Shown: positions 15,893 to 59,836, counted from the whole stretch's first letter. The stretch: DNA of 63,211 bases, filler included, from Reclinomonas americana ATCC 50394 (GCA_048213135.1; 56 parts of 56 records of this genome joined end to end with filler, not necessarily neighbours in it), one strand, 5' to 3'. Notes: generated from the sequence alone by a model not told the origin. Numbers and translations: made by a program.

Positions 15893-16716
15893 ATGAGCAT
15901 GTGGGCACCATCGGCAGCTGCAATGCGGGTGTCGCGGTGGCGGAGTGTGTTGTGGGGCACACACGCGCAGCAACGCGATGTGCGCATGAACGCGAATGAT
16001 ATTCGCATCGGGCACATTCTGGAGCACGCCGGTCGCCTGTGTGTGGTCACCAAGTTCAACCATCAGAAGACGGGGCGCGGGTCGGCACACATGCAAGTGG
16101 AGATGAAGGATCTGGAGAAGGGCACAAAGATAACGGAGCGCTTCCGCCCCGCGGAGACTGTGGAAAGTTGCAACGCGCGCGCGTCTCCCCCTGCATGCAT
16201 GTAAGCGTGTGTGTGTGTTTGTGTGCACGGTCGCTCACGATTGTTTTTTCGCAGGAGTGCAACTGGAGGAGACCAAACTGACGTTCCTGTACGAAGACGA
16301 GAACTCGCACTCGCTGGTGTTTGCCGACGATGCATACGACCAAGTATTTGTGCCAGCAGACCTTGCCGGTGACGCGAAACCCTTCCTGCAGAGTGGCATG
16401 GCAGTGCAAGTGGCATTCCACGGCCAGGAGCCAGTGTCTCTGTCGCTCCCCGACACAGTCATCTGTGCGGTGGTCGAGACGCCGCAGATGAGCAAGAACG
16501 ACACCGTGACACCCACAAACAAACCGGCGGTGCTCGACAACGGAGTGAAGATCATGGTGCCGCCCTTTGTCAACGCTGGCGATCGCGTCATTGTTCGAGG
16601 TGCGAAAGCGCTGTGCGTCCGTCCCCGTCTCAACGCTCATATTCTGCTAACTGCTGTGTGCACGTGTGATCTCTGCTGCAGTGGCCGACATGACGTACAT
16701 GTCGAGAGAAAAGTAA
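15893..16716 (+). CDS. efp: Nuclear-encoded organellar (probably mitochondrial) elongation factor P, complete, 2 introns
   Basis: NANDIRIGHILE, HQKTGRGSA loop, K...RFR..E.VE, TFLY, KPAVLDNGVKIMVPPFVNAGD. Arg/Ser-rich leader. Introns 16167-16254 and 16600-16681; stop 16714-16716. Confidence 0.93.
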
Positions 16717-17264
16717 GAGGTCGGCAGCGACGCACTCATCGCAACGCAGTGAACACAATTTTTCTACGACGCGTTCACTTGTCTCACAACAGACAGTGCA
16801 CTCGACTACACAGCAGCAGCAGCAGCAGTTGTTGTGGGGATCATCGTGGAGCTCGACTCCGGCACCGACGACTCTGACGAACCCGAGCGAGCAAAGTTGC
16901 GTAGCACCGTCAGCACNNNNNNNNNNNNNNNNNNNNNNNNNNNNNNNNNNNNNNNNNNNNTTAATTAATTAANNNNNNNNNNNNNNNNNNNNNNNNNNNN
17001 NNNNNNNNNNNNNNNNTGTGAGCCACTTGCATTTTGAAGCATGTGCGTTGTTGAGTGAGTGTGTGTGCGCGTGTGCGTGTGCGTGTGTGTGCGTGTAGGG
17101 GCACACACGCGTACATGCACACAGACGTACCACTTTGTGCGACGCACTCGGAAGACGGAAGAGAAAGACAGAGAGATGACTCCCGCCATTTTGCACCACA
17201 TCACGAGAAACCCCCCTCGCGTTTTTTCTTACACAAATTTCTCCTTTGCATTTTTTACGTGCCA

Positions 17265-18049
17265 TTAACACTCGACATAGGCAGGCTTGCTGTTGGAGAC
17301 CGCGGAGGAGAGCGGTAATGTGGGACCAGGGTGGGTGGTGAGTGGCGTGGTGGGAATCGCCGGCACCGAAAGTGGCGGGAAGGAAGAGGGTGGTGCACGG
17401 CTGACGGGCGCGACAAACGTCGGCGAGAGCATGTGGGCGTGGACCGAGTAGTTGAGAGGCAGGTGCGGCACAATTTGCAGAGTCTGCTCCTCCGACATGT
17501 CGGCCACGGCAGTACGTGGAGGTTCGCGAAGTGGGACCGACGACAGGCTTCCACTGTGGCGTGTGTGTGTGTGTGTGTGAGACAGAGAGCGAGGAGGGGA
17601 GAGGACGGAGAGTGGATGCACACGCACCTGCGCAGTCTTGGTGTGTCGAAAATAACACTTGCCGGTGGGCTGAGGGCACGGCGGAGCTTCTGATATTTGT
17701 ACACGTTGAACAGGATGATGCCGAACAGGCAGACAGAAAAGCCGGCAATCTTGGTCGCATTCATCTCCTGCACATGCATGCACGCGTACGTGGGTGAGTG
17801 TCATCATGGTGGGGATGCACGGCGTGGGTGGCAAGGAAGACGCACCTCGTCGTCAAACAAAAAGAGTGAAAAGCCCACAGTCAGCACCTCCTTGGTGAGA
17901 CCGGCGACACCCAGTGTCATGAACGACGTCTGTGCGATCAGCAGGTACTCGCTGAAATTGAGGGCGAACGCCAGCGCACAGCCGGCGAGAATCTTCAATG
18001 AGATCTGCGCGGCGACAAGGCGAGTCAGTAAAACGAACAACAGCCAGCT
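17265..18049 (-). CDS. SLC35/TPT family nucleotide-sugar transporter (SLC35C2-like), 3' part
   Basis: LAFALNFSEYLLIAQTS..TLGVAG..KEVLT..FS..LFD, then IAGFSVCLFGIILFN.YK; GTGCGT introns. Confidence 0.82.
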
Positions 18050-18149
18050 NNNNNNNNNNNNNNNNNNNNNNNNNNNNNNNNNNNNNNNNNNNNTTAATTA
18101 ATTAANNNNNNNNNNNNNNNNNNNNNNNNNNNNNNNNNNNNNNNNNNNN

Positions 18150-18755
18150 ATCGGGGGGCAACTTTGCGCGCCGTTTGACACCAAAGTAGAGGATCCTGCG
18201 CTAGTAGAGGCGCGAGAGAAGCTCGAGAGCGCCTCTGCCATCAATGATGGTGAAACCGATCCCGAGGTCGCCAAGCAGGCTCGGGACCAGGTGCAGCAGG
18301 CGAAGATCCTTCTCGCCTCTGCCAAGAAGGCGAATTTTCGTGTCATCCGCCGGATGGAGCTCGACCATGTTGTCGAATTCTTCCAAGCGCTCCGTCCGAT
18401 GGCAAAGCCAGCGGAGATAACGTCGTTCGAAGCGCTGCAGGCCGCCACGGAGAGGTTGATCGGAACGCCCGGACTTGCCTTCGATGCAAGCCTTCAGGAG
18501 TTGCGAGGCAAGGTTGGCGTCGTCCTTCGTCGGCAAGACTGGTTCACCGTCGACCGCTTCAAATATCTGGCCTCAACGCCGCACCTGTTCACCGACGCGA
18601 AGGCGTTCGAACGGCTCGTCGCTGAGGGCGAGCGCGCGATCCAGGGTGGTGATATTGAAGCGTTGCGAGCGGCCGTGAGCAATCTGGAAGTGACCCGGAT
18701 CATCTCCGCGGATGCAGACGACCTCATTGCCAAGACCAACATCGTCAAGGCCTGA
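18150..18755 (+). CDS. Bacterial helical C-terminal region, possibly of an atypical Hsp70-family protein
   Basis: Intronless, bacterial codon style, all-helical; ends ...GDIEALRAAV...TNIVKA one base before the next ATG. The family call is recollection only. Confidence 0.45.
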   Translation: MGGQLCAPFDTKVEDPALVEAREKLESASAINDGETDPEVAKQARDQVQQAKILLASAKKANFRVIRRMELDHVVEFFQALRPMAKPAEITSFEALQAATERLIGTPGLAFDASLQELRGKVGVVLRRQDWFTVDRFKYLASTPHLFTDAKAFERLVAEGERAIQGGDIEALRAAVSNLEVTRIISADADDLIAKTNIVKA

Positions 18756-18756
18756 C

Positions 18757-19182
18757 ATGGCAGTGGACCCTTGGCTTCCTGTCGGTTTTGAGGTCGAGCG
18801 CGGGGTGAAGGCCGGCCGGGTCCTGCATTCGGGATCCGATTGGCAGATAATTGATGTGCAAGGTCAAGGTCGCGCTTTGCTGATGCGAAGCCAGGTGGAA
18901 CTGCGCTGGCGCGAGGAAGGCCTGCTTGAGGAGGGTGAGGCCCGCCTGATCGATTTCGGCGACGTTCGCTTGGGCGTGATTTTCAGCGAGGCGAAGTTCA
19001 CGCTCGCGCCGCTGAAGAATTGCAATTCGCCTCGCGATCGATTGGAGGCGCTCTCTTTCGCAGTCTCCTTGAAGCAATCGCGCGCCCGTCTACGGCAGGG
19101 CTCTTTCGAAGAGGCAATCTACGTCGAAAAGCTCTCCCGTCTCCTCCCGACGGGGGATGCAATGTCAGATGACGAGCTCGTC
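18757..19182 (+). CDS. Bacterial protein N-terminus, possibly of an AAA ATPase co-encoded with the Hsp70-like gene
   Basis: MAVDPWLPVGF...WQI...AIYVEKLSRLLPT; tightly coupled to the upstream stop (TGA-C-ATG). No Walker motif within the contig. Confidence 0.4.
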
Positions 19183-19282
19183 NNNNNNNNNNNNNNNNNN
19201 NNNNNNNNNNNNNNNNNNNNNNNNNNTTAATTAATTAANNNNNNNNNNNNNNNNNNNNNNNNNNNNNNNNNNNNNNNNNNNN

Positions 19283-20315
19283 CAGGATTCTCGAGCGAGC
19301 CGAAGTCAAATCGCTGCTGTCGTATCTGCAGCTTCTCATCGAACCGAGAGACACTGAGGCCTTTGAGCGGGCGGTACGTGTGACGCGGGTGTTGGGTAGT
19401 GTGTGGTTTTCTTCTCTCCTCGGCTGCATGTCTCTTCCGCTGCTTGACTCCACGATCGTACTGTTTTGGTTCTCGGACTCCTCGCATCGCACAACCTTGA
19501 ATGTCAGCATCTCGATGCCGCATTGTGTGAGCATTGTCCACTCTGTGGCGTTTCTGACATGTTTGCACGCAGTCCAATCTGCCTTGTTCCCCCGTGTTTG
19601 CATCTTTTTTCCTCGCGCGCCTCTTATCTATCAGTGCCTCAGTCTCCCTTCATTCTTCTCCGTTTCGCTCCTCCCATTTCTCACTTCTTACCACTGGCGT
19701 CTTGCCGTGCACAGGTGTCGGAGCCATCGCGCGGCGTCGGCAAGCAATCCGTGACAACAATTGTTCAGTTCGCCAACCAGCAGAGGGTGGACCTTTTGTC
19801 CGCTTGCCGTACGATCTTGATCACGAGTCTACTCGGTCCGCAAGCGGCGGCCGGTGTGCATGAATTCCTCGCTCTCATGGATGATTTGGTACGTTTCATT
19901 GGTCTGCTTGTTGTTTTTCTTCGATGGCTAATTCCCCCCACAATTAGCGCCAAGCTATGGAACGATTGACGCTGGAGGAGTTGCTGGCGTACGTGATTGC
20001 CAAGTCGGGGCTCGAAGACTATTACAAGCAGAAGCGCAGGGAGGGGTTTGAGGCGAAATGGGCGCATCTTACCGTTTTCATGAGTGCCATGGTTGATTCG
20101 CAAAACATGGCGGACTTCGCGCTGCCGGAGGACGTCAAGGAGGCGGCAGGAGGACCCACGAAGCTGCCAGCCAAGTACACGCTGGCTCCCACGTTACAGT
20201 ATTTCTTGCTCTCGGCAGTGGAGATCGACGTCGGCAATGACGAGGAAGACGAGTCGGATCAGCAGCAGCCCAAGGTTACCGTCATGACGTACCACAAGGC
20301 CAAGGGTGTGTGTGT
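19283..20315 (+). CDS. UvrD/PcrA/Srs2-type SF1A helicase, partial, intron-containing
   Basis: ERAEVKSLLSYLQL..P.D..AF.R|..P.RGVG, SGLEDYY and VTVMTYHKAKG (motif V). Introns 19374-19714 and 19889-19947 (GTACGT donors). Confidence 0.87.
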
Positions 20316-20606
20316 NNNNNNNNNNNNNNNNNNNNNNNNNNNNNNNNNNNNNNNNNNNNTTAATTAATTAANNNNNNNNNNNNNNNNNNNNNNNNNNNNN
20401 NNNNNNNNNNNNNNNCTTCTCTTCCCCCTTCTCTTCCTGTTTATCGCCCCTCTTATCGTCCCCCTCCGTCTTCCCTCTCTTCCCCCTTCTCTTCCCCCTT
20501 CCCCTCCCCCTGCCTTCTCTCTCCCTTTATCCCTCCTTTCCCCCTCCCTCCTCCCACATTTACCCCCTCTCTTCCCCCTTATCCCCCTTCCCCTTCCCCT
20601 CCTACA

Positions 20607-21339
20607 GATCACGAACAGTCTTTTCCTCAACAACACGGCATCAGCGAATGCAAATGGTGGGAACAACAACAAAGGATCTGGAAATGCCGTTGGCTCACAA
20701 GTCGGTGGAGGAGTGATTTGGTCGTACTATGCAGGAGCTGGTATAGCCACGCAGACAGTGAATGCGGGTTGTGATGACATGTTGAGCGTCGCTTGATGCC
20801 TAAAAAAGGTGCTTACCTTTGGCAGATCAGTGGATCATCTTTCGTGTTCAACCAAGCTGATCAAAACTCAAACGGAGGCACGCGGAACTCCGTTTCTTCC
20901 GACTCGTCAATTTCTGCCTCCACCGCCGGTGGCGGCGCCTTATTGATCTCTGCTTCAAGTCAGGTCTGTGTGTTGTCTCGAGAATGCCTCATTGTTATCG
21001 GTGCAAGATTGTTGATTGAAAACTCTCATAGTTCACCCAGTCCATCATCAACTGCACATTCACGGCGAATACTGCAAGCAACAATGGAAATGGTGGTTCT
21101 GTGAGCAGTGAGTAACATGAATGACACTTGGTGTGTGTGCGTGTAGTGCATGTTGTACTTATGTTCCGGGTTAAGATGCGTGTATGAGAGTGAATGTGTG
21201 TGTGAGGTTGATTGCACGTACGGTTGACCTGGTTGATGTGTGGGTTTTGCTTGCAGATTACCGCGCGAGTGCGGATAGCGACAGTTCCACCAATGGTGGT
21301 GGTGTCATGTTGATCAGCACCAATAGCTATACATTACAG
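20607..21339 (+). CDS. Polymorphic-membrane-protein-like beta-helix repeat protein fragment with short exons
   Basis: Repeated FxxN / GGG(A/V) motifs (ITNSLFLNNTA, VGGGVIW, SFVFNQA, AGGGALLI, NGGGVMLI) separated by GT-AG introns. Confidence 0.55.
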
Positions 21340-21549
21340 GTGTGTTCTCTCTCTCTCTCTTTCTTTCTCTCCCTTCCCTATTGTTGGTTACATGTTTGCA
21401 CAAGAGTTGAGAGATTGTTTGTCTTCGTTTCACGCTCACTTTGTGTGCANNNNNNNNNNNNNNNNNNNNNNNNNNNNNNNNNNNNNNNNNNNNTTAATTA
21501 ATTAANNNNNNNNNNNNNNNNNNNNNNNNNNNNNNNNNNNNNNNNNNNN

Positions 21550-22493
21550 GAGTGGCAGTGGCAGTGGCAGTGGAGCTGCGGCGAGTGGTGAGGCTGTCGA
21601 CGATGCGTCGCGACCCAAACTGTACGACTTGAGCAATGCCGACGACTTGCGCAAGCTGCGTCTGCTGCTGGCGCAGGTGTATGTTCGCGAGGGCGATTGT
21701 TTGGTGCTCGGCAGTTGCGTGAACGGCTGCGACTTGAACTCCAGTGACGCGCATGTGCTGAGTACTGCTGCTGCAGATAATGAGGTGGCCGCCGTCGAGG
21801 AGTACAAGCGTGGTCTGGCCATTCGCGAACAATTGCTGCCGCCCAGCAGCCGATTGCTGGCCGAGTCGTTGCGTCCCTCGCTGTCAAGAAAGAGAAACCA
21901 CACACCGATGCACTGTACACCCACACGCACGCCACGCATCACACAGACACTACCAGATCGCTCTGGCTCTCGCCACCGCCAAGCGCAGTGCCGCAGCCGC
22001 CGAGCACTTTACCTCCGCTCAGGGCATTCTCAGTGCACGGCTTGCCGAGCTGAAAGGTTCGCGCACATCCTCTTGTCTTTGCCGACCTCTGATGTTCACC
22101 GACCGGACGTGCACAGCCATGGAGGCACCGGAGGCCGACGACACGGCCGAGATAGAGGATCTGGAGGCGGTGATTGTGGACCTGCGGGAGACCATTGCGT
22201 CGACACAGTCGGCCATTGCCATTGAAGAGCAGCTGCGGCGTCAGCGCGAGGCCGAGGCCGCCGAGAAGGCGCGTCGCGAGGCCGAATCTGCACGGTTGCC
22301 CGTCATCCAGCTCGGCACGTTTGCCAGCAAGAAGCGTCGCACAGGCGCCACTGGCGACAGTGCTGTCGTCACGGCAGCAGCGACCGGCGACGATGCAGGA
22401 GAGGCCGCAGCGGGCGATAGCAGCGCAGCCGGCTCGTCCAAGAAGAGGACGCACGCCGAGTCTGCAGATACGGACGCTCCCGACGAGAAATAA
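21550..22493 (+). CDS. NASP: NASP/Sim3/Hif1-like histone chaperone (SHNi-TPR), 3' part, 3 introns
   Basis: Spliced LAQVYVREGDCLVLGNNEVAAVEEYKRGLAIREQLLPPSSRLLAESHYQIALAL, EIEDLEAVIVDLRE and a basic C-terminal NLS. Introns 21714-21776, 21868-21946 and about 22057-22116. Confidence 0.82.
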
Positions 22494-23304
22494 AAGCCCT
22501 GGAAACAAGTCGATTGGTTCCGCTGCTTTTCAGACGCCGTGTTTTTTCTCTGCTTTTATCGTGGTGTGACCAAGCGATCATNNNNNNNNNNNNNNNNNNN
22601 NNNNNNNNNNNNNNNNNNNNNNNNNTTAATTAATTAANNNNNNNNNNNNNNNNNNNNNNNNNNNNNNNNNNNNNNNNNNNNGAGAGGGAGAGGGAAAGAA
22701 AGAGGAAGAGGAAGAGAGAGGGAAAAGAGGGAGAGGGTGAGGGAGAGGGATGAAACAGAGAGCAAAAGCAAGTGCGAAGCACCTCTCTTCTTCTGCACTC
22801 CTCACCAAAGTAAAGACATGCAATGCAGAGACAGAACACAGTGCGGAGTGCTGTTGCCTTTGACTCAAATCCCCCTTCTTCTCCCTCCCAGAAAGGTAAC
22901 TTGCACGGCGTGCAAGGGCAGAGACAGAGACAAAGCCAGGGAGAGGGAGTGAGAGAGAAACGGGGAGATGCAATGGAAAGAGAGCAAGAGAGCGAGCGAC
23001 AACTCCCGAGGTTAAGTGCCTTCTCTTTCCTGTCATCTCTCTCTTCCTCTTCGCTGCACCACCCTTGCAGACAAGAAACTATTATGACGCAAGAGAAGAG
23101 AAGAGCAGAGGAGAGAGAGAGAAGAGAGAGAGAAAGTCCAATGCAAGTCCACACTACATCACCCTTGCAGATAAGGAACTTGCAAGGCATACAAGAGACA
23201 ACATCTAGCATTCAGCAGACAATCATGCAATGCAAAATAAATTGCAGTCAAAGCGCCCTTCCCCTCTCCCTTGTTCCCTCTCCTTTCCCCCTTCTCTACT
23301 CACC

Positions 23305-23678: not shown

Positions 23679-23713
<35 letters not shown>

Positions 23714-38392: not shown

Positions 38393-39646
38393 GCCGTCAG
38401 AGTCGCCGCAGATCGACNNNNNNNNNNNNNNNNNNNNNNNNNNNNNNNNNNNNNNNNNNNNTTAATTAATTAANNNNNNNNNNNNNNNNNNNNNNNNNNN
38501 NNNNNNNNNNNNNNNNNGGAGAAAGAGAGGGATGTGCGGCATTTTTTGTTCACGCACCGCATCAACGACTCGTACTCGGGAATGAGAGTGGTCACCGCAG
38601 CCAAAGACGACTGTGTGGCGAGTGCACAACGGAGTGCATGTCGCAGCGACAACATCGCGCAGTATCCACACAACGTATTGGAGGAACCGACGAATTCCAG
38701 CCAGTACTGCAGAGGGGTGGTGGCGAGTGAGAACACGCAACAGCATCGGCACAATCGGCACACGCGTGGTGGTGGACATATCGACGCGCAACATCACGCA
38801 AAAACTCGAGGTCGGTCCAGTAAAGAGTCTCCGTAATCATCGGCAACACCTGCAGGGCCATGCGGCGCACCTCAAATACGGTAGACGTGACGCTCTCCAC
38901 GGTCTGGAACCAGATCATGCGCAGCGTGGCGCCAATTGGAGCAACTGGCGCGCCACGAGCAGCAGCCGCTCTGCAGAACGACACACTGATGGTGAGTACG
39001 CGTGTTCACCCAATCTGGAGGTGGAGACACGCAACTGTGGGGTTTGTCGTGCAGACGTGGGCATTCGCCGGAGCTGATCCAGAATGGAGACAGCTGGTGA
39101 GTTGCGTGCCCCCGATGTCGCCACACCCTGCATCGTTGTCAGTGCGTCGGCAATGGAAACAGCGAACCCTGGATCGTACGACGCGCAACTGGTGGTACTG
39201 ACGAAGCCGCGTGTTGAAACGAAGGATGCATGGGACTGGAGAGGACGGCACGAGTCGGCGTGACTTCAAGCGCTGCCGTACTCGGTGAAGGTTGTGTGGA
39301 GCCGACGGCGGGTGACGGTGGCACAGACGACACCTCCATGTGCATCGTGCCCATGTCGGGAGTCGATACTGCCACCAGCAAAACAAGTAAGCAACGAAGT
39401 AACGACGACGGACGATAGACCAACGTGGAAACGAACTTGCGTGGCGCACAGGTGGGCGAGCAGCTGCTGGCATCAACACCTGTGGAGGCGAGGCCAGTGG
39501 TGGTGGTGGTGAGAAGGCACCGGGAGTGTTGGAGCGACTGTGATGANNNNNNNNNNNNNNNNNNNNNNNNNNNNNNNNNNNNNNNNNNNNTTAATTAATT
39601 AANNNNNNNNNNNNNNNNNNNNNNNNNNNNNNNNNNNNNNNNNNNN

Positions 39647-40216
39647 CCGCGCGAACGCAACTCATCGTGGAGCGCTTCGCCGAAGGAGAGCACGATAGGA
39701 CTTCGTCGCGGCATAGGCCGCATAAGTGGGAACCGGCTGGAAGGCCAGCAGACTGGCGACGAGAAGCATCTCGCCGGAGCCTCGGCTGGCCATGTCCCGC
39801 CCGAAGACGTAGCTCAGCTCGGTCAGCGCCGTCACGTTGAGCTGGATCATCTCGGCGGTGCGCGCGAACGGCGTGTCGAGAAAGTCGCCGTGCAGGCCGA
39901 AACCCGCATTGTTGACCAGGAGATCGATCCGCAGGGCCTTCGCGTCCAGTTTCTCTTTCAAGCGGCCGGCAGCGCCGGGAGCGGAGAGGTCGACCGGCTC
40001 GACATGGATCTCGACACCGTGCTTCCGGCGAAGCTCGGAGGCGAGCCTTTCCATCGGCTCGCGTCGCCGCGCCGCGAGCACGAGATTGACTTTTCGAGCC
40101 GCCAGAAGCTCGGCGAATTCGACGCCGAGGCCGCTCGATGCGCCCGTCACAAGGGCCCATTTTCCCGAGGGCGCGTTCAAGGTGCTTCCAGCCGGGGAAC
40201 CGCTCACGTTCTGCAT
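39647..40216 (-). CDS. Bacterial short-chain dehydrogenase/reductase, 5' part, apparent +1 frameshift near 39694
   Basis: ALVTGASSGLG, LAARR, LVNNAGFG, YAATK; removing one C restores YVLSFGEALHDELR. Confidence 0.9.
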
Positions 40217-40289
40217 GTGGTGACCTTTCGAATAGATGCCCCTATGCATCGTGCGAAACCCGCGGTTCGATGACGGCGGAAGGTTGAGT

Positions 40290-40673
40290 TTAGCGTCGCG
40301 GACGGTCGCGGTAGACGGGATAGAAGACTGCGAAAGCGCCAACCGAGGTCGCCATCATGACGATGGCGAGCGAGACCGACGGCGAGAACGGCATCGTGCT
40401 CGCCAGCGTCGAACCGATGGCGGCGCTGCCCATCTGCAGGAAGCCGAGCAGGGCAGAGGCCGAGCCGGCCTGACGGCCAAAGGGCTGCAGCGCGATCGCC
40501 GTGCCGAGCGGATTGATCAGCCCCATGCCGAAGAGGACGATAGACAGTGCCGCAGTGAAGGTAAGGTAGGATGGCTGCGACGCGACCGCGATCATCGCCA
40601 GCGCGCCGGCGGCGAAGACGATCAGCCCAGCGAAGCCGGTGGTCCGGTCGCCATGGCGCCGCGCCAGCCAAGG
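40290..40673 (-). CDS. Bacterial MFS efflux transporter (Bcr/CflA-like), C-terminus
   Basis: LFGMGL.NP...A.ALQPF...AG.ASALLGFLQM and terminal TM helices. Confidence 0.85.
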   Translation of the reverse strand, partial: PWLARRHGDRTTGFAGLIVFAAGALAMIAVASQPSYLTFTAALSIVLFGMGLINPLGTAIALQPFGRQAGSASALLGFLQMGSAAIGSTLASTMPFSPSVSLAIVMMATSVGAFAVFYPVYRDRPRR

Positions 40674-42887: not shown

Positions 42888-44158
42888 GGGGAGGAGAGAG
42901 AGAGGAGGTAGGGTGGAGGAGGAGGAGGNNNNNNNNNNNNNNNNNNNNNNNNNNNNNNNNNNNNNNNNNNNNTTAATTAATTAANNNNNNNNNNNNNNNN
43001 NNNNNNNNNNNNNNNNNNNNNNNNNNNNTTGTCGCCCTTTCACGTCTGTGTGGCTGACACCATCCGATCGCAGCACGGCTCGCCGAACATTCCGTGGCAG
43101 GGGTCGAGGGCGCGGACGAGGGCGCGGTCGGGGTCGAGGCCGAGGTCGTGGTCGCGGTCGTCCACCTGGCCCGTAAATTCCCCCTCCACATGTCTGTCTC
43201 AGTTTTCTTGTCCATTACAACACATTAGCGTTCGCTTCTGCTTCTTTGGCTTTTCTTTTTCTCTCTCCACTCACACACTCACTCACGCTCAAGCAAACGT
43301 GCTCGCATGCTCATCGCACAGCCGGGCGACCGCCACACGGTGCTCCTGCGGAACCATGTTCCAGTAGCGCGAGCTAGTCGCCTGCGTGCACATGTAGTTG
43401 AGCGAGCGCGGTGCCTGCGACGGCTCCTCCACCGACTGCAACAGCGCCAGCTGCATCACATCGTGCGCCGACACACTCGTCTTGGCACGCAAATCGGCGC
43501 GCATCTGCTCACTGCAGTCGACCAGCAACTGCGCCAGACGGTCGTCGCTCATTGCCCCGCCAATCTTGTCCACGCAGTTGGCCAGTGTCGCCACGCGCAA
43601 CACGCGGTGCACTGCAAGATAAAGAGTGAGTGAGCGACTTGTCAGAGGAGCGAGAGAGAGACAAGCGCGCAACGATAGGTCGTCAAGTCGGCACTCTCTG
43701 TGCCCACTGCGGCCGCACCACCTTCGCCTCCCAGTGCGCCCACATCAGTGGCACTCACCAGCTGGCTCACCACAAGCAGCGACAACAACACCAATGTCAA
43801 CGAGTAGCGCCTGCGACACACACGCACACACACACAGTCAGTCACACGCACACAGGCACACAGGCACATGCGCGCAGAGAACTCAACAGCATCTTTTCTC
43901 AGAAAACAAAGCGCGAATGAGATCGATCCAACGTTCGTGTGGACAGACGACAAACCAGCCGGTGCTCGCGTGCCGTTGTCATCAATCATCAATGGCGAGC
44001 GCGCCCTTGCCTGCAGAAGGCAGTGTGCCGCCTGTGTACAGTGACGCACCACCAGCGGNNNNNNNNNNNNNNNNNNNNNNNNNNNNNNNNNNNNNNNNNN
44101 NNTTAATTAATTAANNNNNNNNNNNNNNNNNNNNNNNNNNNNNNNNNNNNNNNNNNNN

Positions 44159-45023
44159 CGCGCCAGTTTGTCGAACAACGAGGAAACGAGCGATGCAACG
44201 CCTTTCTCGAGGCTCGCATGCCGAAGCGTGGAGTGAAACCACAGCCGTACGTGACACCGGCCGACAAGCTCAAGTCCTTTATCGAGGACAAGTACATTCG
44301 ACGACGATGGCTCGATCCGGCATCGGCCGATGCGTTTGCCGTGTTTCTCACTCCGGGCGGAGCGCAGTCGCAGCCTGTGGCAGGAGAAGCATCATCATCC
44401 GTGCCACCACAACAGCCTGCGCCACCACCGGCAGCGGTCAATCCGTCGATTCCTCTGCCGCGTGTGGTGCTGGTGGACCAGTCCATTGCGGTGCCTGCCA
44501 ATGCGCGACCTCAGCCGGTGCCGATCAGTGCACCGCCACCCACGCCACCAGCACCACCTGCCGTCGCCACACCGTCGCCGACGCAAAAAGATTCACACGA
44601 CTCGAGTGATGAGGACGACACTAGTGAATCCAGTGACGAGGATGACGAGGAGGAGGAGGAGCGTGGAGGATCCGGAAGCGGCGTCGAGGAGCACATTCGG
44701 AAAGGATTCGATCGAGTCACCATGTTGCGTGCAGACTTTGTAGTGAGTGCACCCTTTCACGCCCACTAATTGTTGACGCTGTCAGTGTGATGCCGCGTGG
44801 GCCGTATCTGGTGTCGCCTGTGCCGCGGGCCGTTCGTCAAATGTACTTTGGCGTCCAGCACCTGCTGCAGGGCACGGTGACGGTGCGAGTGCCGGAACCC
44901 TCCGACCCGCCGTTGCCGCCCCCGCAGATGCACGATCCGCTGTACCCGTACAATGTTCACTCGTTCGCTGTGGTGCCTGGCATGCAGCGAACATCGTGGG
45001 TCCTCGCTCGAGTGGCCGACTGA
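44159..45023 (+). CDS. ArfGAP-domain protein, 3' part, intron 44724-44785
   Basis: GNERCNAFLEA...KP......FIEDKYIRRRW is the ArfGAP C-terminal motif; followed by a Pro-rich and acidic region. Confidence 0.78.
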
Positions 45024-48670: not shown

Positions 48671-49191
48671 TGATGCATGATTGGACGCAACGAGCGAGAA
48701 GCGATTGCGCATCAGCTTACGCCGGGGCTCATCAATGGTGAAGGTCTTGGCCAGCGGGGTGTTCTTCCTCTCCTTCTTCTTGCCCTCAATGGCCACCTTC
48801 TTCACCCTGAGGGCGGCAACAAAAATTTGTAAGGACCACATGTCGCACTCACCACACTCAACTCACTCACTCGCTCACTCACACAAGCCACCACCACGAA
48901 AATGCACATGAACAGCACATCACAGAGTCACGCACAGAGAGAGACAGCGCACAGTGTGCGACAGTGTGTGCGCGCGACAGTGCGTGAGTGTGCATGTGCA
49001 CATGTGACCTCGCGCGCCCCACTCTTCCCGCTCACACGGTCTCCTCACACACTCTGCACTCTCTCCCACGCTCACAAAGTACGCAACTTGTGATAGCGGC
49101 GGCGCTTGAGCGAATCCGAGCGGCCGTAGCGCTCGATGCCCTTGATGATGTTCGGGTTGCGCGTGCGCCCCTTCTTCTGTGCGTCAGCCAT
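48671..49191 (-). CDS. RPL6: 60S ribosomal protein L6 (eL6), 5' part, intron 48807-49087
   Basis: RNPNIIKGIERYGRS...KRR.Y.K matches the eL6 N-terminal domain; the spliced continuation is Lys/Arg-rich. Confidence 0.8.
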
Positions 49192-50758: not shown

Positions 50759-50811
<53 letters not shown>

Positions 50812-51019: not shown

Positions 51020-51953
51020 ACACACCGCATTCGAAGACAGCACCGCTGCTGCAGAGTCGCCGCTGGTGGACAAGTCGAAAAAGTTGGCTGCATGACGACG
51101 ACCGCGGGTTAGAGACATGTAAGATGCTCTAAACATGAGGGCGACGCAACTTCCCGTCAGAGAGACAAGTTGCCACGATCGCCGGTGGATGGTAGTCGGC
51201 GACACTGCTGAAACAGTCATTGTGGCTGTATGACCCGCACCCAACACAGTCGTCAGTGACCACAAGGAAGAAATGGTGGTACCCTTCGCTGCGCCCGTCA
51301 CTCACCTCGAGCAGTGATCAACGGCTGCGCCTGTTCGATAAACGAGCTTGCGGACACTGGCATGTGACACACGGCCATGGGTGCCATCAACGCTCCCGTG
51401 CCAGCAGTGACACTTGCCACAGTCAACGCTCCACTCGCCACACTCTTGGCGCCGATGCTGATGAGCGAGGTCGCCACAGCACTGCAGTCGCTCGCCGGTA
51501 CAGTGCACGTTAGAGAGGAGCTCGACAGGAACGTGCTGCGCTCCGCCATGTAGTTATTTAACACCTGCGCCGACGTCAACGTGCTGCTGTGGATACGCAG
51601 CCGAGCGATTGTCAGCGTGCCACGCCGAGCCGCTTCCGGACTTGCGTCGCCGTTGTACTGCGACGCGAGAGTGATGGGTGTGGACGCGGAGATATTGGGG
51701 TTCTTGATTCCCGAATTCGACAAAAATCCGTCAGCATACACACGCTCTGTTGTCCCATCCGATGTAAACACCAAGTGGTGCCACGTGCCGGCCGCGGGCA
51801 CTGGTGATCCCCACGGCATGTCATCATTAAAATGAACAACTGCGCCCCACACAATATGGCTGCCGTAATAAAATGCAAAATTTTGCGAGTTGGTACGAAC
51901 TCCCCACGCGACGATTGTTTCCTCCGACGCCACAGCTGGATTCAACACCCACG
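51020..51953 (-). CDS. LamG/ConA-like jelly-roll plus IPT/TIG domain surface protein, intron-containing fragment
   Basis: GTWHHLVFTSDG..RVYADG and LRIH...LT..QV..NY; after a GTGAGT intron, VSAVSPTT...VSLTG|TNF (IPT motif completed by removing intron 51088-51150). Confidence 0.8.
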
Positions 51954-52142
51954 NNNNNNNNNNNNNNNNNNNNNNNNNNNNNNNNNNNNNNNNNNNNTTA
52001 ATTAATTAANNNNNNNNNNNNNNNNNNNNNNNNNNNNNNNNNNNNNNNNNNNNGATCAAAGTGAAAATGTTCCGCGCGCGCCACAGACGACTCAACTCGC
52101 GGCGGCGCTGTTGGTCTCGCTGCCGGTACGCCTCCTCGTCCC

Positions 52143-52437
52143 TAAACAGAGAGAGAGAGATGGAAAGAGAGTGTGTGTGAGTAAGTCATGATTGATGTAA
52201 TAATGGAAAAATAAAAGCGCGCACGCAACAGCCGCAGAACCTGCAGTGGGAGGCGCAGGCGGAAGCACCTTGGCTGCGCGCGTGCACACACGCACACCGA
52301 GTGAGCGTGAGTGTGAAAGATGAAAGTCACTCCTCCAGTCATGACACGCAACTGCGATCACCCGACGCATTGACGCCAAACGCGCGCAACTTGGCCTCCG
52401 CCTTGCGGATCTCCTCATCCATCTCACGATTGCTCAT
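52143..52437 (-). CDS. 5' exons of a hypothetical protein
   Basis: MSNREMDEEIRKAEAKLRAFGVNASGDR|TKVLPPAPPTA; intron 52274-52352 (GTTGCGT...CAG). Confidence 0.55.
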
Positions 52438-52551
52438 GGCGACAACAACAAACAAGCACCCCGAAACCACTTTGGTCGAGAATCCATCCACGAAGTTCAA
52501 CTCGGCATCAGTCGATCCATGCCCGCACACTTTGGTCGTCTCGTTTTCATC

Positions 52552-53080
52552 ATGAGCGATGCGCGTCTGCGTGCGCTTCTGCATCAGTGGGTGGCGTCGC
52601 TGGTGAGTGTGCAAGTCGACGGCGGAGAGGGCGACTTTGTGCACGAGTCGCGCAGTGGAGGCGCTGCGTTGCTGGTGCGCGTGTGCAGACGCGTGGATGG
52701 CGAGCTGTTGGTGCAGGCGGTGGATTGTGTGGAGGAGCCAGTCACTAATGCAGGTGCGTGTGCGTGTGCGTGACTTGCTCTCGTTGGCGCGCGCTCACGT
52801 GTGCACAGATCGCATGTTGAATGTGCGTGAGGTGACGGTGCATTTGCGGAAGCGTTGGGGTGATGCAGTCGACACGCGCGCGCTGTGCACGTTGCGTTTG
52901 CATGCGCACATGCACGCATGCATGCACGTGTCATCATTCTCATGTGTGTGTGTGCCGTGCAGGCCGGAGGAGTTTTATGGTGCCGATGAGCCCGTGGTTC
53001 GCTTGTATTACGAGATCTTTCGGCTGTACTTTCTGTTGCCTGCTGAGGTGGAGTGGCACCATCCCCCCCTCGTTCGCCCC
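52552..53080 (+). CDS. 5' exons of a hypothetical protein with a probable 7-nt micro-exon
   Basis: MSDARLRALLHQW...TNA|DRM|PEEFYGADEPVVRLYYEIFRLYF; introns 52754-52808 and 52816-52962. Confidence 0.5.
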
Positions 53081-53252
53081 NNNNNNNNNNNNNNNNNNNN
53101 NNNNNNNNNNNNNNNNNNNNNNNNTTAATTAATTAANNNNNNNNNNNNNNNNNNNNNNNNNNNNNNNNNNNNNNNNNNNNCCCTTCCCCTCCCCCTTCCC
53201 TTCATCCCCCTTCCCCCTTCTCCTCACCACCTTCACCTTGCCACCCCCACAG

Positions 53253-54208: not shown

Positions 54209-54308
54209 NNNNNNNNNNNNNNNNNNNNNNNNNNNNNNNNNNNNNNNNNNNNTTAATTAATTAANNNNNNNNNNNNNNNNNNNNNNNNNNNNNNNNNNNN
54301 NNNNNNNN

Positions 54309-55334
54309 TTCCACCGCTGACGAACCCGGAGGCGCTGACAGAGTTGCCGAGAACGGCACCTTGCGCGGTAATCACATTGCCAGTGATTGTGCCGGCTGCG
54401 CTGATTGCGTCGCTGCTGAGCACTGCTGATTGCGCACTAATCGTGCCGCCATTCAGGAGTCCCGACGTCGACAGACTACCGCCACTGACGACGCCTGACG
54501 AGCTCACACTGAGCGAGGTGAGGCTGCCCGTAGCAGTCACCGTGCTGCTCACAATGACAGAGCCGGCCGACACGGCGCCACCAGTGTTGACGCCAGTACC
54601 AGAAATGAGGCCGGCCGATGAGAACGCGCCTCCACTTGTCAGAGTGGCGGCAACCAACGATCCAGCCGTACTAATACTGCCCGCCAGCAGCGAACCACCT
54701 GTGGTTACACTGCCGCCAGAAATGAGGCCAGGTGCGCTAATTGTGCCGTTGGACAGCAGGCTGCCGGCAGTGAGCGCACCAGCGGCCGAAACCGTGCCAC
54801 TGGTCACGACACTACCACTAGTCAGCGAGCCGGCTGCCGCCAACGTGCCAGCAGTAGAAAAACTCCCGCCAATCACGGTACCCAGTGCCGCAATGGAACC
54901 CGCGGTTGTTAGGCTACCGGCCGAGATGAGACCGACTGTGGAAACCGCATTCGCTTGGACAGCCCCCACTGTACTGATGGAGGTGAGACTCACAATGGCA
55001 CCAGCCGCGGAGACAGTGCCAGCGGTGCTCAGATTGGCGCCACTGATCAGACCGCCCGTGACAAGGGTTCCGGCAGTCGACAGACTGCCACCATCAATGA
55101 GCCCAAGCACGAAGAGATTTCCGGCCGTGGAGAAACTGCCGCCAGTCACGACCGCCGATGTTGTAATCTGGCCAGCCACCGACAAACTGGCTCCCGTGAT
55201 GAGACCCGTCACCGTGATGTTGCCGCCAAACGAGGCGTTGTTGGTGACTGATGCCGAAGACATTTGCGCCGCGCCACCAACTGTGAGCGAACCGAGTGCA
55301 GAAACACTTCCACCCACAAGGATACTGGTGGAGG
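54309..55334 (-). CDS. Gly/Ser/Thr/Ala-rich solenoid-repeat protein fragment, intronless
   Basis: About 20 imperfect repeats of roughly 11-17 aa, consensus (I/V)SGGSLSTAGxLxAxG; open across the whole contig. Confidence 0.75.
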
Positions 55335-55434
55335 NNNNNNNNNNNNNNNNNNNNNNNNNNNNNNNNNNNNNNNNNNNNTTAATTAATTAANNNNNNNNNN
55401 NNNNNNNNNNNNNNNNNNNNNNNNNNNNNNNNNN

Positions 55435-56457
55435 ACGATCAAACTTCTCGCGTGCCAAGCCCATCAGCATTGACACCTCCTCGGCCGAGCGCTTGAAATT
55501 CTCAATCGAAAACGCGTACACGGTGATGGCCTCGACGCCCAGCTGCAGGCACCACTCCAGCGCCTGTCGAATGCGCGCATGAGACCAAGCGGAAGGAGAT
55601 GGAGCGTGAGAGAGCAACCCCACCTGTTCCAGTGTCTTGTACCCAAACTTGTGACCGGCTGTCCGCGACATGTGACGCATTTCAGCCCACCGACGATTCC
55701 CATCCATGATGAACGCAATGTGGCGTGGAATCGGACTGCGTGGAGAGAGATAGAGAGAGGTGAGACACTCGACACAGTGCGTGAGAAGGGGCAAGGGACA
55801 CACGCACCCACACATCAACACACGACGACAGAGCCACGATAGCGCCCACTGCGCATACATGGCCAACCACACCAGCAAGGCCAGTACACGCGACATGCCA
55901 GGCGTGGAGGACACCTGTTCCCACACTGCACGCATGATTCGCCACAACATTGCAAGCACTCCACGGTGCGGCTTCTTCTTCTGCTGCTTGCCCTCTTCTT
56001 CTTCCTCTTCTTCCTCGTCCTCGTCCTCCTCCTCCCTCTCTTCTCCACTGTGCGCAGTGGCAGCAGTGGTCGAGTGAGGAGGCGGGGGAGGCGGTGGAGG
56101 CGGAGTTGGGTCGTCCTCCAGCAAGTACTCTGCGGCCTCGTCGCCTGTCAGACTCCATGTGTCGGAGGAGGAGGCCGAGGCAGTGCTGTTGGCCGTCTCG
56201 GTGACGTAAAAGGCGGCGGCAGAGGGCTCGGGCGTGGGGAGGGTGGTGTCCTCGGAGGATTGCTGTGCTTGTTGTTGTTGTTGTTGTGAGGGTGGTTGGT
56301 GTATGGGTTGTTGGTGTGGTGTGCCGGTGACGAGCATCAGCACGAGCAGTGAGACGAGCAGCGAGGTGCCCCAGAGTGGGAGAGAGCCGAGTCGGTTCTC
56401 CATGTGCGTGATGCACTGATGCGGTGATGAGTTGTCGGACATCGCTCGCGGCTCCAT
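55435..56457 (-). CDS. DHDDS: cis-prenyltransferase (dehydrodolichyl diphosphate synthase-like), 5' part, 2 introns
   Basis: [21 protein letters not shown]...[27 protein letters not shown]. Confidence 0.92.
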
Positions 56458-56789
56458 TGANNNNNNNNNNNNNNNNNNNNNNNNNNNNNNNNNNNNNNNN
56501 NNNNTTAATTAATTAANNNNNNNNNNNNNNNNNNNNNNNNNNNNNNNNNNNNNNNNNNNNCCCTTTCAGTTTCCTCGCTCTTTCGTTCTTGAAGACTCTC
56601 AATGTCTGCTGCTGCTCCTCCTGCTGCTCCTGCTGCTGGTAGCGCTTCGGCGCCTGCTCATGGGGTGAGTTGAAGTTGCTCATCATAAAGTGTGTGTGTC
56701 GGTGTGTGTGCGTGTGTGTGGCACAGGAGGGCGCATGCGTCTGAGTGTGCGCTTCGATGATGCGTGCGCGAGTGAGTGTGAGCGTGACT

Positions 56790-57584
56790 TGAACAGCAAG
56801 ATCCGTGTCGCGCGTCGCAATCGGTCGCCAAGCAACTTGTTCATGCATCTGTTTGTGCGGGAGCGGCCAAACCGTCCAGTGTACATGGATGTGCTACGCA
56901 AGGCAATGGCCGCGAACAAGAACTTACGACCGTTTTGGCCGCAGGCGGAGTCAGTGATGGAGGTGGATTCGCCGAGCGCAGCGGTTGCGTGACTTGTCTC
57001 TCTTTGTCTCTCTCTCTCTCTCTCTTCTCTGATTACTGTAACATGCACGCAGTTTCTGGCTCTGTCTCGCCCGCTCGAGAACTTGCTCAACACGGCAAAC
57101 GCCAGTCAGTCGCAGACGGTCCAGGTGGGCGCCACCAGACTCAGTGAGCTGCTCGGCACACTGCGAACTGTGAAGGGACAGGTAAGACCAGTGAGGAATG
57201 CGATTTTCGGGGACTTGCTTACTGTACACGGGGGGTGAGGTGTAGACGGAGCACATACGTCGCGAGTCGGCCGCCCAAGCGCGTGAACTGCGCGATAAAT
57301 CGGAGTCGCTGGAACGAGAGCATTGGCGGAGCGCCAGCGTGCTGCCGTGGCGGTGGAAGCAGAGCGCAAGCGTGCCGCTGAGGCAGTGCAAGATCTGAAT
57401 GAGGAGCGCAAGCGTGCTGCCGTGGCGGTGGAAGCGGAGCGCAAGCGTGCCGCTGAGGCAGTGCAAGATCTGAATGAGGAGCGCAAGCGTGCCACTGAGG
57501 CGGTGGAAGCGGAGCGCAAGCGTGCCGCTGAGGCAGTGCAAGATCTGAAGGAGGAGCGCAAGCGTGCCACTGAGGCGGTGGAAG
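56790..57584 (+). CDS. Coiled-coil protein with 25-aa (75-nt) tandem repeats, intron-containing
   Basis: AVEAERKRAAEAVQDLNEERKRA(A/T)(V/E) repeated more than 3 times from 57340; upstream intron 56984-57052. Confidence 0.65.
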
Positions 57585-57705
57585 NNNNNNNNNNNNNNNN
57601 NNNNNNNNNNNNNNNNNNNNNNNNNNNNTTAATTAATTAANNNNNNNNNNNNNNNNNNNNNNNNNNNNNNNNNNNNNNNNNNNNCTCCTTCTTCTTCTTC
57701 TTCTC

Positions 57706-57746
<41 letters not shown>

Positions 57747-58810
57747 CACACACTCACCAAGAAGCGAATGTCGACCGATCCACCATACGAGCTGCCTGTT
57801 GCCATTGAGCCAGATGTTGTGAGCGACAGAGCAACACATGTTTCCTCTTTCTTCCTCTGACTGAACTCACCGCTGAGCGGCACCACCATGCACGTTCCGT
57901 GCAACACATCATCTGCATCAGTAGACACGCACGCAAACACAGTTTGACTTCTTCTCTCCACCACCACCACGAAGGAAGCATTCAGCAGGACTGTGTCGCT
58001 CTCACCTCCATGCACCGCCGCCGCAGCTGCGCGAGTGAAGAAGAAGAGTGTGTCAGTCAAGGGGGTCTTTGATGCACATGGCGCACAAAAGCGACGACAA
58101 CGACGAATGCAGAGAAGAAAAAGAACAGAGAGGTCATTACCCGCTCACCAAAGCACAGCACCACAGCCACAACCAGAATCACAAAGCGAGGCGACATTCT
58201 CTCTCTTGAGCACACAAAAAGCACAATGATCGGAAAATTCAATCTGTCCTCACTCTCGGCACACACTCTTCCCCTCTTCGTTCTCTCCTCTCTCCCTCAC
58301 CCTCCACGCACAAGTGTTCCACATCCCTGGATCGACAACGCTGAGGACAACAAGCTCGCCGACGAACAGTGTGCCCAGAGCGATGGCCAGCACGCGCAGC
58401 ACCAGCTCGACGAACCGGTCTCGATCGCGCGCCATGTGTGACGAGCACACAAGCACACACGCGCGCGACGAGGACGACGAGGAGGGGAAAAAAGGAATTT
58501 CGACCGTTTCAATCAATTTTCGCGGGAATTGACGAGAAAAGACAACACACGATGAGTCGGGAGACGACGTCGCCGGTGGGAGCGAGTGTGCTTAGTGGCG
58601 GGCAGCCGCTGTTTCTGCCGTCGGGGTCGGTGGATCACTCGAATAACTTTCGGGTGTTTCATCGGTGAGGGAAGGGAGAAGATGTGGGAGAAGGGGAGAA
58701 AAGGGAGAGGNNNNNNNNNNNNNNNNNNNNNNNNNNNNNNNNNNNNNNNNNNNNTTAATTAATTAANNNNNNNNNNNNNNNNNNNNNNNNNNNNNNNNNN
58801 NNNNNNNNNN

Positions 58811-59836
58811 GCTACTAATGGGCCTGTTCTACATTGCCACCATCATCCTGTCGCTGGTCACTGGCGTCATTTTCGGCGTCACCGGTCGCAAGATTGTGAT
58901 GCGTCTGCGCATCACCCTCATGCGCAACTACTTGGCGCAGAGTATGGCGTTCTTCGACTCGAAATCGGTCGGCGAGCTGCTTTCCCGCATGTTGCGTCTC
59001 TTGCCTTTCTCTCTCTCTTTTCTTCATTCCGGTCCCACTCACATCGCGTCTTCCGCGTGCGCAGCTCCGTTGATGTGGCACAGCTGCAGACCATTACCAC
59101 GACGTTCTCCAATCTGCTGACCATTGTGGCGACAGTCATCATCTCCATCATCTGGATGATCAAGTACAGTGTCATCATGAGCGCCATTGTGCTGGCCACC
59201 ACCCCGTTCCTCGTCGCCTTTTCGCTGTTCTTCGGCAATCTCATCCGCAAGAAGACCACGCTCGCCTATGATGTGCGTGGAGCCAAATCCTCTCTCATGG
59301 CCAAGTGTGTCGCATGCACTCATGCTCCCTTGTTTCGCACGCAGGTGTTGGCCGAGCAACAGCAGGTGGCCAACGAAGTTCTCACTAACATCCGCACCGT
59401 GCGTGCCTACGACCAGGAGCGTCGTGAGGGCAACCGATACATGGCCGTGACAGTGCGAGTGTATCGCATCGGTTTGACGCTTGTCGCATACTCGCAGGTT
59501 TGCTTGCTTTCTCTCCCTTTCTCTCGTTTCCTCCTCGTCGCTCACTGCCATGCACAGATCTACGGCCTGTGTGTGCTGGTCGTCTCGTACGCCGCCACGC
59601 TGTTGGTGTTCTACTTTGGCGCCCAAGAAGTCATTCAGTCCAATCTGCAGTACGGCGACTTGCTGGCCTTTATCAGTTACGCACACGCGCACACGTGCAC
59701 CCATGTGTGCAACCTTTCTTGCTCACATCTCTCACTTTTTTGCCAACAGCCTACGCCGGCAAAATCTCGGCGGCCGTCAAGGGTCTCTCGCAAATGTACA
59801 CGTCCCTCATGAAGACTGTTGGCGGAACGCAGGTGC
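58811..59836 (+). CDS. ABCB-family ABC transporter transmembrane domain, partial, 4 introns
   Basis: G.KIV.RLR..L...L.Q...FFD...GELLSRI..D, ANEVL.NIRTVRAY..E, L.FYFGA..V......GDLLAFI.Y. Introns include 58991-59064 and 59676-59749. Confidence 0.93.

Follow-up and report, generated by a model that had tools for sequence, protein, structure and literature searches.

A GTT(G/A)CG class of intron starts beside ordinary donors in sequence from Reclinomonas americana

Introduction

In a stretch of 63,211 bases from Reclinomonas americana ATCC 50394 (GCA_048213135.1), here called the window and analysed at its full length, two kinds of GT-AG intron start occur side by side. One is the ordinary donor, with the local consensus hexamer GTGCGT; the other, here called the GTT class, reads GTTGCG, GTTACG or GTTGCA and has at +3 to +7 the consensus TGCGT, which is the ordinary consensus at +2 to +6. 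As far as sequence can tell, these GTT(G/A)CG starts are real: three of them, at 16167, 58991 and 59676, are confirmed by homology, and about ten more are predicted from coding content together with branch and acceptor signals. They stand at exon ends, and the exon end in front of them differs from that of ordinary donors, being captured best by A or C at -2 and any base other than G at -1. We give a probability of about one half to the reading that the class is real, that it consists of the local hexamer with an extra U, and that its intron element would be read one base out of register, the cut falling at the only GU and the exon contributing little.

It is well known that the exon and intron halves of a 5' splice site trade off against each other, and recognition in a displaced register has been known solely from rare human sites. 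In Entamoeba the donor consensus is GTTTGT, which has a U at +3. As to the displaced registers themselves, both the shifted (+1) and the bulged (+2/+3) forms are established at human 5' splice sites, according to Tan et al. 2016 (PMC4856993), which cites Roca and Krainer 2009 for the former and Roca et al. 2012 for the latter. Among the open-access papers searched, none was found that gives GTTGCG or GUUGCG as the consensus of a donor, and the organism's own genome paper may describe one. A first-pass annotation of the window had proposed that two compensating donor classes exist, that in one of them the whole 9-nucleotide (nt) footprint of the U1 small nuclear RNA (snRNA) is moved one base into the intron, MA/G mimicking the canonical MAG/ (the slash marks the cut), and that an A bias at -1 favours a true register shift over a simple bulge.

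Results

The EF-P gene holds an intron of 88 nt at 16167..16254 (+), with the GTT-class donor aaa/GTTGCAAC and a CAG acceptor. The TIGR00038 profile of EF-P matches with its positions 1-63 on the upstream open reading frame (ORF) and with 59-174 on the downstream one, and the junction 16166/16255 joins position 60, a split codon for 61 and position 62; no alternative in-frame GT lies within 60 nt, and the 3' signal scores 16.6. The two other confirmed junctions belong to a single gene, that of an ABC transporter. Its membrane domain is interrupted at 58991..59064 (+) by an intron of 74 nt with the donor cat/GTTGCGTC (GTT class), across which the Pfam ABC_membrane profile continues through positions 103/104/105 and the homologues P0010 and P0013 align ungapped. 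A second intron of 74 nt, at 59676..59749 (+), starts with tca/GTTACGCA (GTTACGC, GTT class); here P0012 and P0016 have matches to the exon on either side, the two exons being in different frames, there is no in-frame alternative GT, and the 3' score is 18.8. Where this intron stands, the predicted proteins P0012 and P0016 contain 26 and 49 residues that find no match, and it looks as if both genes had an intron of their own there which the gene caller read through.

The same gene has two in-frame introns in addition. The one at 59498..59557 (+), 60 nt long, has the donor cag/GTTTGCTT (GTTTGC, with T at +3, of a non-GCG type and following AG), and P0011, P0012 and P0016 show a gap of 20 residues exactly there; the other, 72 nt at 59273..59344 (+), has the ordinary donor gat/GTGCGTGG (GTGCGT) and corresponds to a gap of 24 residues in P0010. 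The four introns of this one gene comprise three GTT donors and one GTG donor. Relatives of the gene were taken from an exhaustive profile search and aligned over all four junctions; a homologue search with the ORF restricted to "longer" lengths at E<=1e-10 returned no matches, and metagenome scans supplied no orthologous ABC intron for comparison (no match in the first scan, two bacterial intronless ABC genes in the second). Removal of the introns at 16167, 58991, 59273, 59498 and 59676 restores the continuity of both frame and homology, and the backing of the other introns is frame and codon bias. Ten junctions are testable by homology in total (16167, 58991, 59676, 59273, 59498, 36448, 36790, 37016, 55623 and 2637), three of which are of the GTT(G/A)C type.

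All listed introns start with GT and end with AG, as U2-type introns do, and their lengths are mostly 59-90 nt; none of the GTT-class donors is of the /RTATCCTT type of U12 (minor) introns. Every one of the 18 seed introns ends in a CAG acceptor and contains a CTCAC-like motif (YTNAY) 12-44 nt upstream of the 3' end. These 3' signals are highly uniform among the seed introns, for example at 16167-16254 and 17768-17845. An introner-type origin of the GTT-class introns was rejected because they share no sequence beyond the splice signals.

Profile matches (Pfam, TIGR) were run on stop-free ORFs, and exon ends were also predicted by a donor-blind parse, in which dynamic programming within each of the blocks that make up the window scores codon bias, branch motif and acceptor and treats all GT as equal. 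Without being told of any donor preference, this parse picks GTTGCG-type donors at 16167, 43673, 44724, 49087, 56984, 58991, 59676 and 61605. Two other ways of calling introns were given up: gene parses treating the window as one locus chained genes over spacers, and their self-trained site models over-predicted (167 introns), while pair-wise listing of GT-AG combinations proved too ambiguous.

The placement of the motif agrees with these calls. GTTGCGT is present in 23 copies in the window versus 10.5 +/- 3.3 expected, a number which none of 100 shuffles reached. Transitions from coding to non-coding on the sense strand coincide with 9 of 45 copies of GTTGCG versus 182 of 5303 other GT sites (3.4%; p = 2e-5), and the same test gives 6 of 58 for GTGCGT (p = 0.015) and 1 of 61 for GTGAGT; the bacterial-like, AT-rich, duplicate and tandem-repeat blocks described below are excluded from these counts. 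In the region 50-125 nt upstream of strong 3' signals there are 11 copies of GTTGCG versus 4.5 expected (z = 3.2), and upstream of such signals AGTTGC occurs 10 times versus 3.6 expected, the bacterial-like and AT-rich blocks being again excluded.

The exon ends of the two classes are distinct. AG stands before none of the 18 GTT-class donors versus 12 of the 18 ordinary ones (Fisher p = 3e-5), and before none of the 13 better-supported GTT-class sites (p = 1.4e-4); G at -1 is found once in 18 versus 14 times in 18 (p = 2e-5). This bears out the two compensating classes of the first-pass annotation, one with a nearly invariant intron part and no AG, the other degenerate and mostly after AG. 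Its statement that no GTTGCGT donor follows AG holds for all 23 copies of the window, among which AGGTTGCGT is absent, and the degenerate donors which it named do follow AG, namely gag/GTGATT at 36448, aag/GTGGAG at 36790 and aag/GTCCGC at 37016 in EF-Ts, and cag/GTGGGG at 55623 in a prenyltransferase. Since perfect GTGCGT donors come after AG in 3 of 5 cases versus 0 of 18 for GTTGCG donors, the absence of AG is specific to the class and goes beyond donor strength.

All eleven positions which had been read as shifted donors carry the bases attributed to them, with CA or AA before 7039 (-), 16167, 21714, 49087 (-), 51150 (-), 52352 (-) and 59676, and AT before 44724, 49635, 52816 and 58991. 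As donors they fare unequally: 16167, 58991 and 59676 are upheld by homology, and 44724, 49087, 52352 and 7039 by coding and 3' signals, while 52816, 49635, 51150 and 21714 stay weak or are likely mistaken.

At -1 the GTT class has A7 T6 C4 G1 over 18 sites and A5 T4 C3 G1 over 13, compared with A18 T31 C18 G17 over 84 non-donor GTT(G/A)C(G/A) sites. The enrichment of A is therefore 7 of 18 versus 18 of 84 (p = 0.11; p = 0.16 with the 13-site set), and when phase and codon position are taken into account for the 13 sites, A is seen 5 times versus 2.6 expected (p = 0.09) and G once versus 4.0 (p = 0.05). The dinucleotides CA and AA precede 7 of 18 donors versus 11 of 84 comparison sites (p = 0.016; 5 of 13, p = 0.037), values which are nominal and rest partly on weak sites; four of the seven cases with A at -1 are ambiguous or weak, and the eight unique-or-confirmed donors have A2 T3 C2 G1. 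AT precedes 6 of the 18 sites. In terms of log likelihood (lnL), the -1 base is fitted by the shifted profile, taken from the ordinary -2, with -27.9, by the unshifted one with -40.8 and by background with -26.3; at -2 the A-rich unshifted profile is best (-21.4), followed by background (-26.3) and the shifted profile (-28.2), A being found there at 9 of 18 sites in resemblance to the ordinary -2.

Discussion

On the reading that we prefer, two kinds of GT-AG intron start would coexist in the organism. The ordinary kind may be written (A)G/GTG(C/A/G)G(T), with an intron part that is often degenerate and would usually lean on the exonic AG. The second kind, roughly one third of the introns seen, may be written H/GTT(G/A)CG(T), that is, the local hexamer with one extra T, so that one more base separates the UGCG(U) element from the cut; the intron part hardly varies, and the exon lacks G at -1 and retains A at -2. 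The likeliest mechanism is that the factor which recognizes UGCGU at ordinary sites would read the second kind one base out of register, the cut staying at the sole GU, and we propose that little exon pairing would be needed because the short introns carry strong CTCAC-like branch and CAG signals. Displaced pairing in the class is something that we infer.

Several points weigh against this reading. The eukaryote-like part of the window amounts to about 51 kb, a small sample, and the 18 GTT-class and 18 ordinary donors were curated by hand from our own parses, with seed introns picked partly by eye and a codon model trained partly on exons that end at these donors. Five of the 18 GTT-class sites are weak, and at six (7039, 21868, 49087, 52352, 52891 and 27403) an in-frame alternative donor lies within 15 nt. 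In EF-Ts the in-frame GTTCGG at 36757 was a false choice of the donor-blind parse, so some of the GTT calls may be wrong, which is a warning above all for those of moderate support. As for pairing, with the U1 5' end taken as the generally conserved sequence, pseudouridine being treated as U, which may not be the sequence of this organism, the mean duplex energies of the GTT class are -0.16 kcal/mol in the canonical, -0.73 in the shifted and -0.47 in the bulged register, and 9 of the 18 sites have zero energy in every register. A displaced reading by U1 is therefore unsupported unless the U1 differs.

With this textbook U1, canonical pairing of the ordinary donors averages -6.1 kcal/mol, and the GTT class forms no stable duplex in any of the three registers that the first-pass annotation had wished to see compared. 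Shifted pairing fails because C at +5 and U at +2 split the helix into pieces of two pairs, so the moved footprint matches the local consensus GTGCGT and not U1; the proposal of a 9-nt footprint moved by one base thus stands relative to the local hexamer and falls relative to textbook U1. For stable pairing of the GTT class a changed U1 5' end would be needed. With a hypothetical U1 made complementary to the local consensus by G-C at positions 5-6, the GTT class would reach -6.9 kcal/mol shifted, -5.6 bulged and 0 canonical, the ordinary donors would reach -9.9, and the shifted register would beat the bulged one at 17 of the 18 GTT-class sites. We entertain only tentatively, and consider on the whole doubtful, the further idea that U1 has co-evolved with GUGCGU in this way (G-C for the two pseudouridines at positions 5-6) and reads the GUUGCG class one base off as a routine genome-wide mode. 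The window contains no snRNA or U1 gene by Rfam, either at the gathering threshold or at E<=1, where the sub-threshold matches are of low complexity.

A full +1 shift, in which the whole U1 footprint including its exon part moves by one base so that MA/G stands for MAG/, as at rare human sites, would explain why CA and AA are over-represented before the donor, why G is nearly absent at -1 just as it is at the ordinary -2, and why strong 3' signals are preceded by an excess of AGTTGC; the shifted profile clearly beats the unshifted one at -1, and the hypothetical U1 would favour the shifted register over the bulged one. However, the A bias at -1 which had been taken to favour a true shift over a bulge is not significant when tested alone, four of its seven cases being doubtful, and among the eight unique-or-confirmed donors A stands at -1 in two. 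Background does as well at -1, and overall it wins by 3.6 lnL units. The six sites with AT are left unexplained, and the shifted duplex with textbook U1 is near -0.7 kcal/mol. In addition, -2 keeps the ordinary preference for A, which is at odds with a full shift. The bulged register, for its part, would predict G at -1, found at 1 of 18 sites, and A at -2, found at 9 of 18. The A bias at -1 speaks weakly for a true shift over a bulge; we regard the full shift as unlikely.

A second snRNA, or a variant U1, complementary to GUUGCGU could pair contiguously with the intron and ignore the exon, with no change of register at all. The seven-base intron motif is indeed far better conserved than the ordinary donors, the exon end is near background save for the missing G, and textbook U1 is unable to pair with the motif in any register. 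However, the window holds no snRNA gene at either Rfam threshold, the motif is identical to the local hexamer apart from one extra T, a resemblance unnecessary for a separate reader, and A at -2 is kept as in ordinary sites, so that such a reader appears less likely again than a full shift.

Still more improbable, in our view, is that cleavage spares most GTTGCG sites, which would instead adjoin a true donor (GTGAGC at 49075, GTGATC at 52361, GTGCGC at 52224) or lie within exons, as an enhancer or simply a common word. In keeping with this, six sites have in-frame alternatives within 15 nt, the frame logic at 52229 assigns cleavage to the second GT of the extended heptamer rather than to the first, and 39661 and, probably, 52816 are not donors; against it, homology places three junctions at the first GT of the motif, in-frame alternatives are lacking altogether at five sites, and the motif is in clear excess at coding ends (9 of 45 versus 3.4% of other GT). 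That the exon-end difference is a sampling accident helped by the readers' selection would suit a set of 18 and 18 hand-curated sites, most of them without independent validation, yet it is hardly credible with the Fisher values obtained for all and for the better-supported sites, and with no AGGTTGCGT in 23 copies.

The preferred reading, displaced by one base with the cut unmoved, can be set beside known systems. Human +1 shifted sites, as described in PMC4856993, resemble the GTT class in having GU, an extra U and then the element usual from +2, with the cut at GU and pairing displaced by one position. Sites of this kind in human genes are rare and pair well with the known U1, whereas the GTT class makes up about one third of the introns, does not pair with textbook U1 and has no clean shifted exon preference. 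With the bulged (+2/+3) sites of the same source the class shares an equally possible arrangement, canonical pairing at +1/+2, one U bulged and GCGU paired, and the predicted A at -2 is kept, while the predicted G at -1 is not.

The trade-off between the exon and intron halves is likewise seen here, for the weak intron parts GTGATT, GTGGAG, GTCCGC and GTGGGG follow AG and the strong ones do not; unlike a simple trade-off, the effect is class-specific, as the perfect GTGCGT donors indicate. The donors of Entamoeba are similar in that T at +3 is common and functional, and differ in that GTTTGT is there the single consensus of a genome, whereas here two classes coexist within one ABC gene.

If one third of the introns are indeed displaced by one base, often beside ordinary starts in the same gene, the organism would offer a natural system for studying how the cut site is chosen when pairing and cleavage are uncoupled, and also whether U1 co-evolves with a shifted consensus. 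In practice, a gene finder with ordinary donors as its training set would get about one third of the exon ends here wrong, and the simple donor-blind parse erred similarly.

Further sites and composition of the window

Among the GTT-class sites, ten were graded as moderate on the strength of a good 3' signal, of coding on one side or both, or of a block end (43673, 44724, 61605, 56984, 21868, 38792, 48691, 49087, 52352 and 7039). Two introns beyond the list of the first-pass annotation were picked by the donor-blind parse: 43612..43673 (-), 62 nt with the donor atc/GTTGCGCG, has a 3' score of 19.2, a stop on read-through and a downstream coding log-odds score (lod) of 33.5, and 61531..61605 (-), 75 nt with gat/GTTGCGTG, has a read-through stop after 6 nt, a coding lod of 22.4 upstream and 45.8 downstream, and a 3' score of 15.9. 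The same parse also calls the 62-nt intron after an ArfGAP exon at 44724..44785 (+), donor cat/GTTGCGTG, which has no in-frame alternative and a coding lod of 12.1 upstream and 19.9 downstream, and the candidate intron at 56984..57052 (+), 69 nt, whose donor gcg/GTTGCGTG is the only one of the class with G at -1; there a stop follows on read-through after 6 nt, and coding support is weak on both sides.

The intron of 79 nt at 21868..21946 (+), donor gtc/GTTGCGTC, shifts the frame between regions of high coding lod (37.7 upstream, 50.8 downstream) and has in-frame alternatives at 21865 and 21883. Its block, 21550-22581, encodes a NASP-like histone-chaperone TPR protein; Pfam recognizes SHNi-TPR in it, and human NASP aligns to it weakly, up to exactly the exon end that precedes 21868; a homologous-protein search with this ORF found no relatives, and a PDB search with the exon after 21868 gave nothing useful. 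An intron of 281 nt at 48807..49087 (-), donor caa/GTTGCGTA, follows the N-terminal exon of ribosomal protein L6e and is likewise called by the donor-blind parse; the Pfam Ribosomal_L6e_N match ends at the donor codon, and the in-frame alternative ttt/GTGAGCGT (GTGAGC, 49075) lies 12 nt downstream. Together with 52352 and 7039 this site has an in-frame alternative GT 9-12 nt away.

Three further candidates have upstream coding support. At 52274..52352 (-), 79 nt with the donor gca/GTTGCGTG, the upstream coding lod is 14.1, read-through meets a stop after 11 nt and the 3' score is 15.2, with two competing models, cgg/GTGATC at 52361 or one longer intron from 52366. At 6830..7039 (-), 210 nt with tca/GTTGCGTT, with a tandem alternative at 7030, the upstream lod is 11.2 and the read-through lod is -28, and the block ends 17 nt from the acceptor and so hides the downstream exon. 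The candidate at 38707..38792 (-), 86 nt with gat/GTTGCGCG and of moderate support, has an upstream lod of 13.6 and a 3' score of 15.3, and coding is negative downstream.

The weak grade comprises 21714, 51150, 49635, 52891 and 27403. A donor at 21714 would require an in-frame intron of 63 nt with a weak acceptor score of 8.8, and Pfam is indecisive; 51150 (-) has the signals of a 63-nt intron between flanks that both lack coding support; and 49635 has a block end 63 nt away. The intron at 52891..52962 (+), 72 nt with cac/GTTGCGTT (GTTGCGT) and a 3' score of 14.1, belongs to the plus-strand gene of its block, in a model of three exons with the frame open on both sides (ATG near 52563, cag/GTGCGT at 52754, and an exon of 82 nt at 52809-52890). 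A donor at 52816 is probably wrong, since it sits within this well-framed exon and would leave an exon of 7 nt. The block, 52054-53080, carries two head-to-head genes about 120 nt apart, the minus-strand one with its ATG near 52440, and at 52229 the frame logic suggests a cut at GTGCGC (52224), five bases into GTTGCGTGCGC, instead of at GTT. The GTTGCGT copy at 39661 was ruled out as a donor, as it lies in a bacterial-like block.

Ordinary donors tested by homology include three in EF-Ts. The in-frame intron at 36448..36513 (+), 66 nt with the degenerate donor GTGATT, appears as an insertion before the NCETDF motif in the frame translation, and the alignment with the T. thermophilus EF-Ts splits in two around it. 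The intron at 36790..36853 (+), 64 nt with GTGGAG, has flanking exons in different frames and an acceptor picked by the parses; its donor, which the first-pass annotation had chosen and which we take to be the right one from the EF-Ts sequence, is better than the in-frame GTTCGG at 36757 of the donor-blind parse. The in-frame intron at 37016..37075 (+), 60 nt with GTCCGC, has the sole supported donor for its acceptor and corresponds to an insertion of 20 residues between conserved EF-Ts segments. In the cis-prenyltransferase (DHDDS-like) gene, for the in-frame intron at 55564..55623 (-), 60 nt with GTGGGG, TIGR00055 and Pfam Prenyltransf both match in two stretches about 20 residues apart. The in-frame intron of the Sir2 gene at 2637..2699 (+), 63 nt with the ordinary donor cag/GTGCGTCG, was picked once 3' signals were scored, and the Sir2 profiles cover more residues there than profile positions.

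As to the window itself, its 56 blocks are 1036 down to 1024 nt long, the length falling slowly along the window. They are separated by 55 spacers (1037-1136, 2173-2272 and onward) built from 110 N-runs of exactly 44 N each, in 55 pairs that flank the same 12 bases, TTAATTAATTAA, which put a stop codon into each of the six frames; this linker is the source of the 220 TAATTA copies in the window. The window looks like a set of short contigs ordered by length and joined with an artificial six-frame-stop linker, not a single locus or chromosome stretch, and therefore no gene can cross a spacer. The span 16165-59682, to which the first-pass annotation had tied its finding, accordingly crosses 39 independent blocks of about 1 kb and is no locus.

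About 50 of the blocks have a G+C content of 0.49-0.66, short introns, dinucleotide repeats and eukaryotic genes, among which are Sir2, EF-P, EF-Ts, homeobox, ArfGAP, L6e, WD40, cis-prenyltransferase, ABC transporter and the NASP-like TPR protein. Five others (3409-4444, 7947-8980, 9081-10114, 39647-40673 and 59937-60961), with a G+C content of 0.66-0.69, lack introns and dinucleotide repeats and carry bacterial-type genes that adjoin or overlap: glyoxalase and S58 peptidase; the end of an amidotransferase and the start of a D-amino-acid dehydrogenase; the end of an MFS gene and an SDR gene; and a nucleoside hydrolase. These G+C-rich intronless blocks are probably bacterial DNA mixed into the assembly. 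Block 28340-29369, with a G+C content of 0.35, far under all others, has long minus-strand ORFs without a Pfam match and may be organellar DNA or DNA of another organism.

The blocks 1-1036 and 1137-2172 have the same length and align over all of it at 97.6% identity, with 25 differing bases and without a gap. They probably represent two alleles or else a very recent duplication; a GTTGCG at 2003 in one copy corresponds to GTGGCG at 867 in the other. Block 33994-35024 consists entirely of a 126-nt tandem repeat (8.2 copies, 88% matches), which is open on the minus strand as a 42-residue repeat. Finally, the ORF at 51301-51951 (-) encodes a Laminin_G_3 domain; its closest relatives in the protein collection are bacterial-looking, one of them, from a contig of 7.9 Mb, being 44% identical, the composition of its block is eukaryote-like, and it may be a transferred gene.

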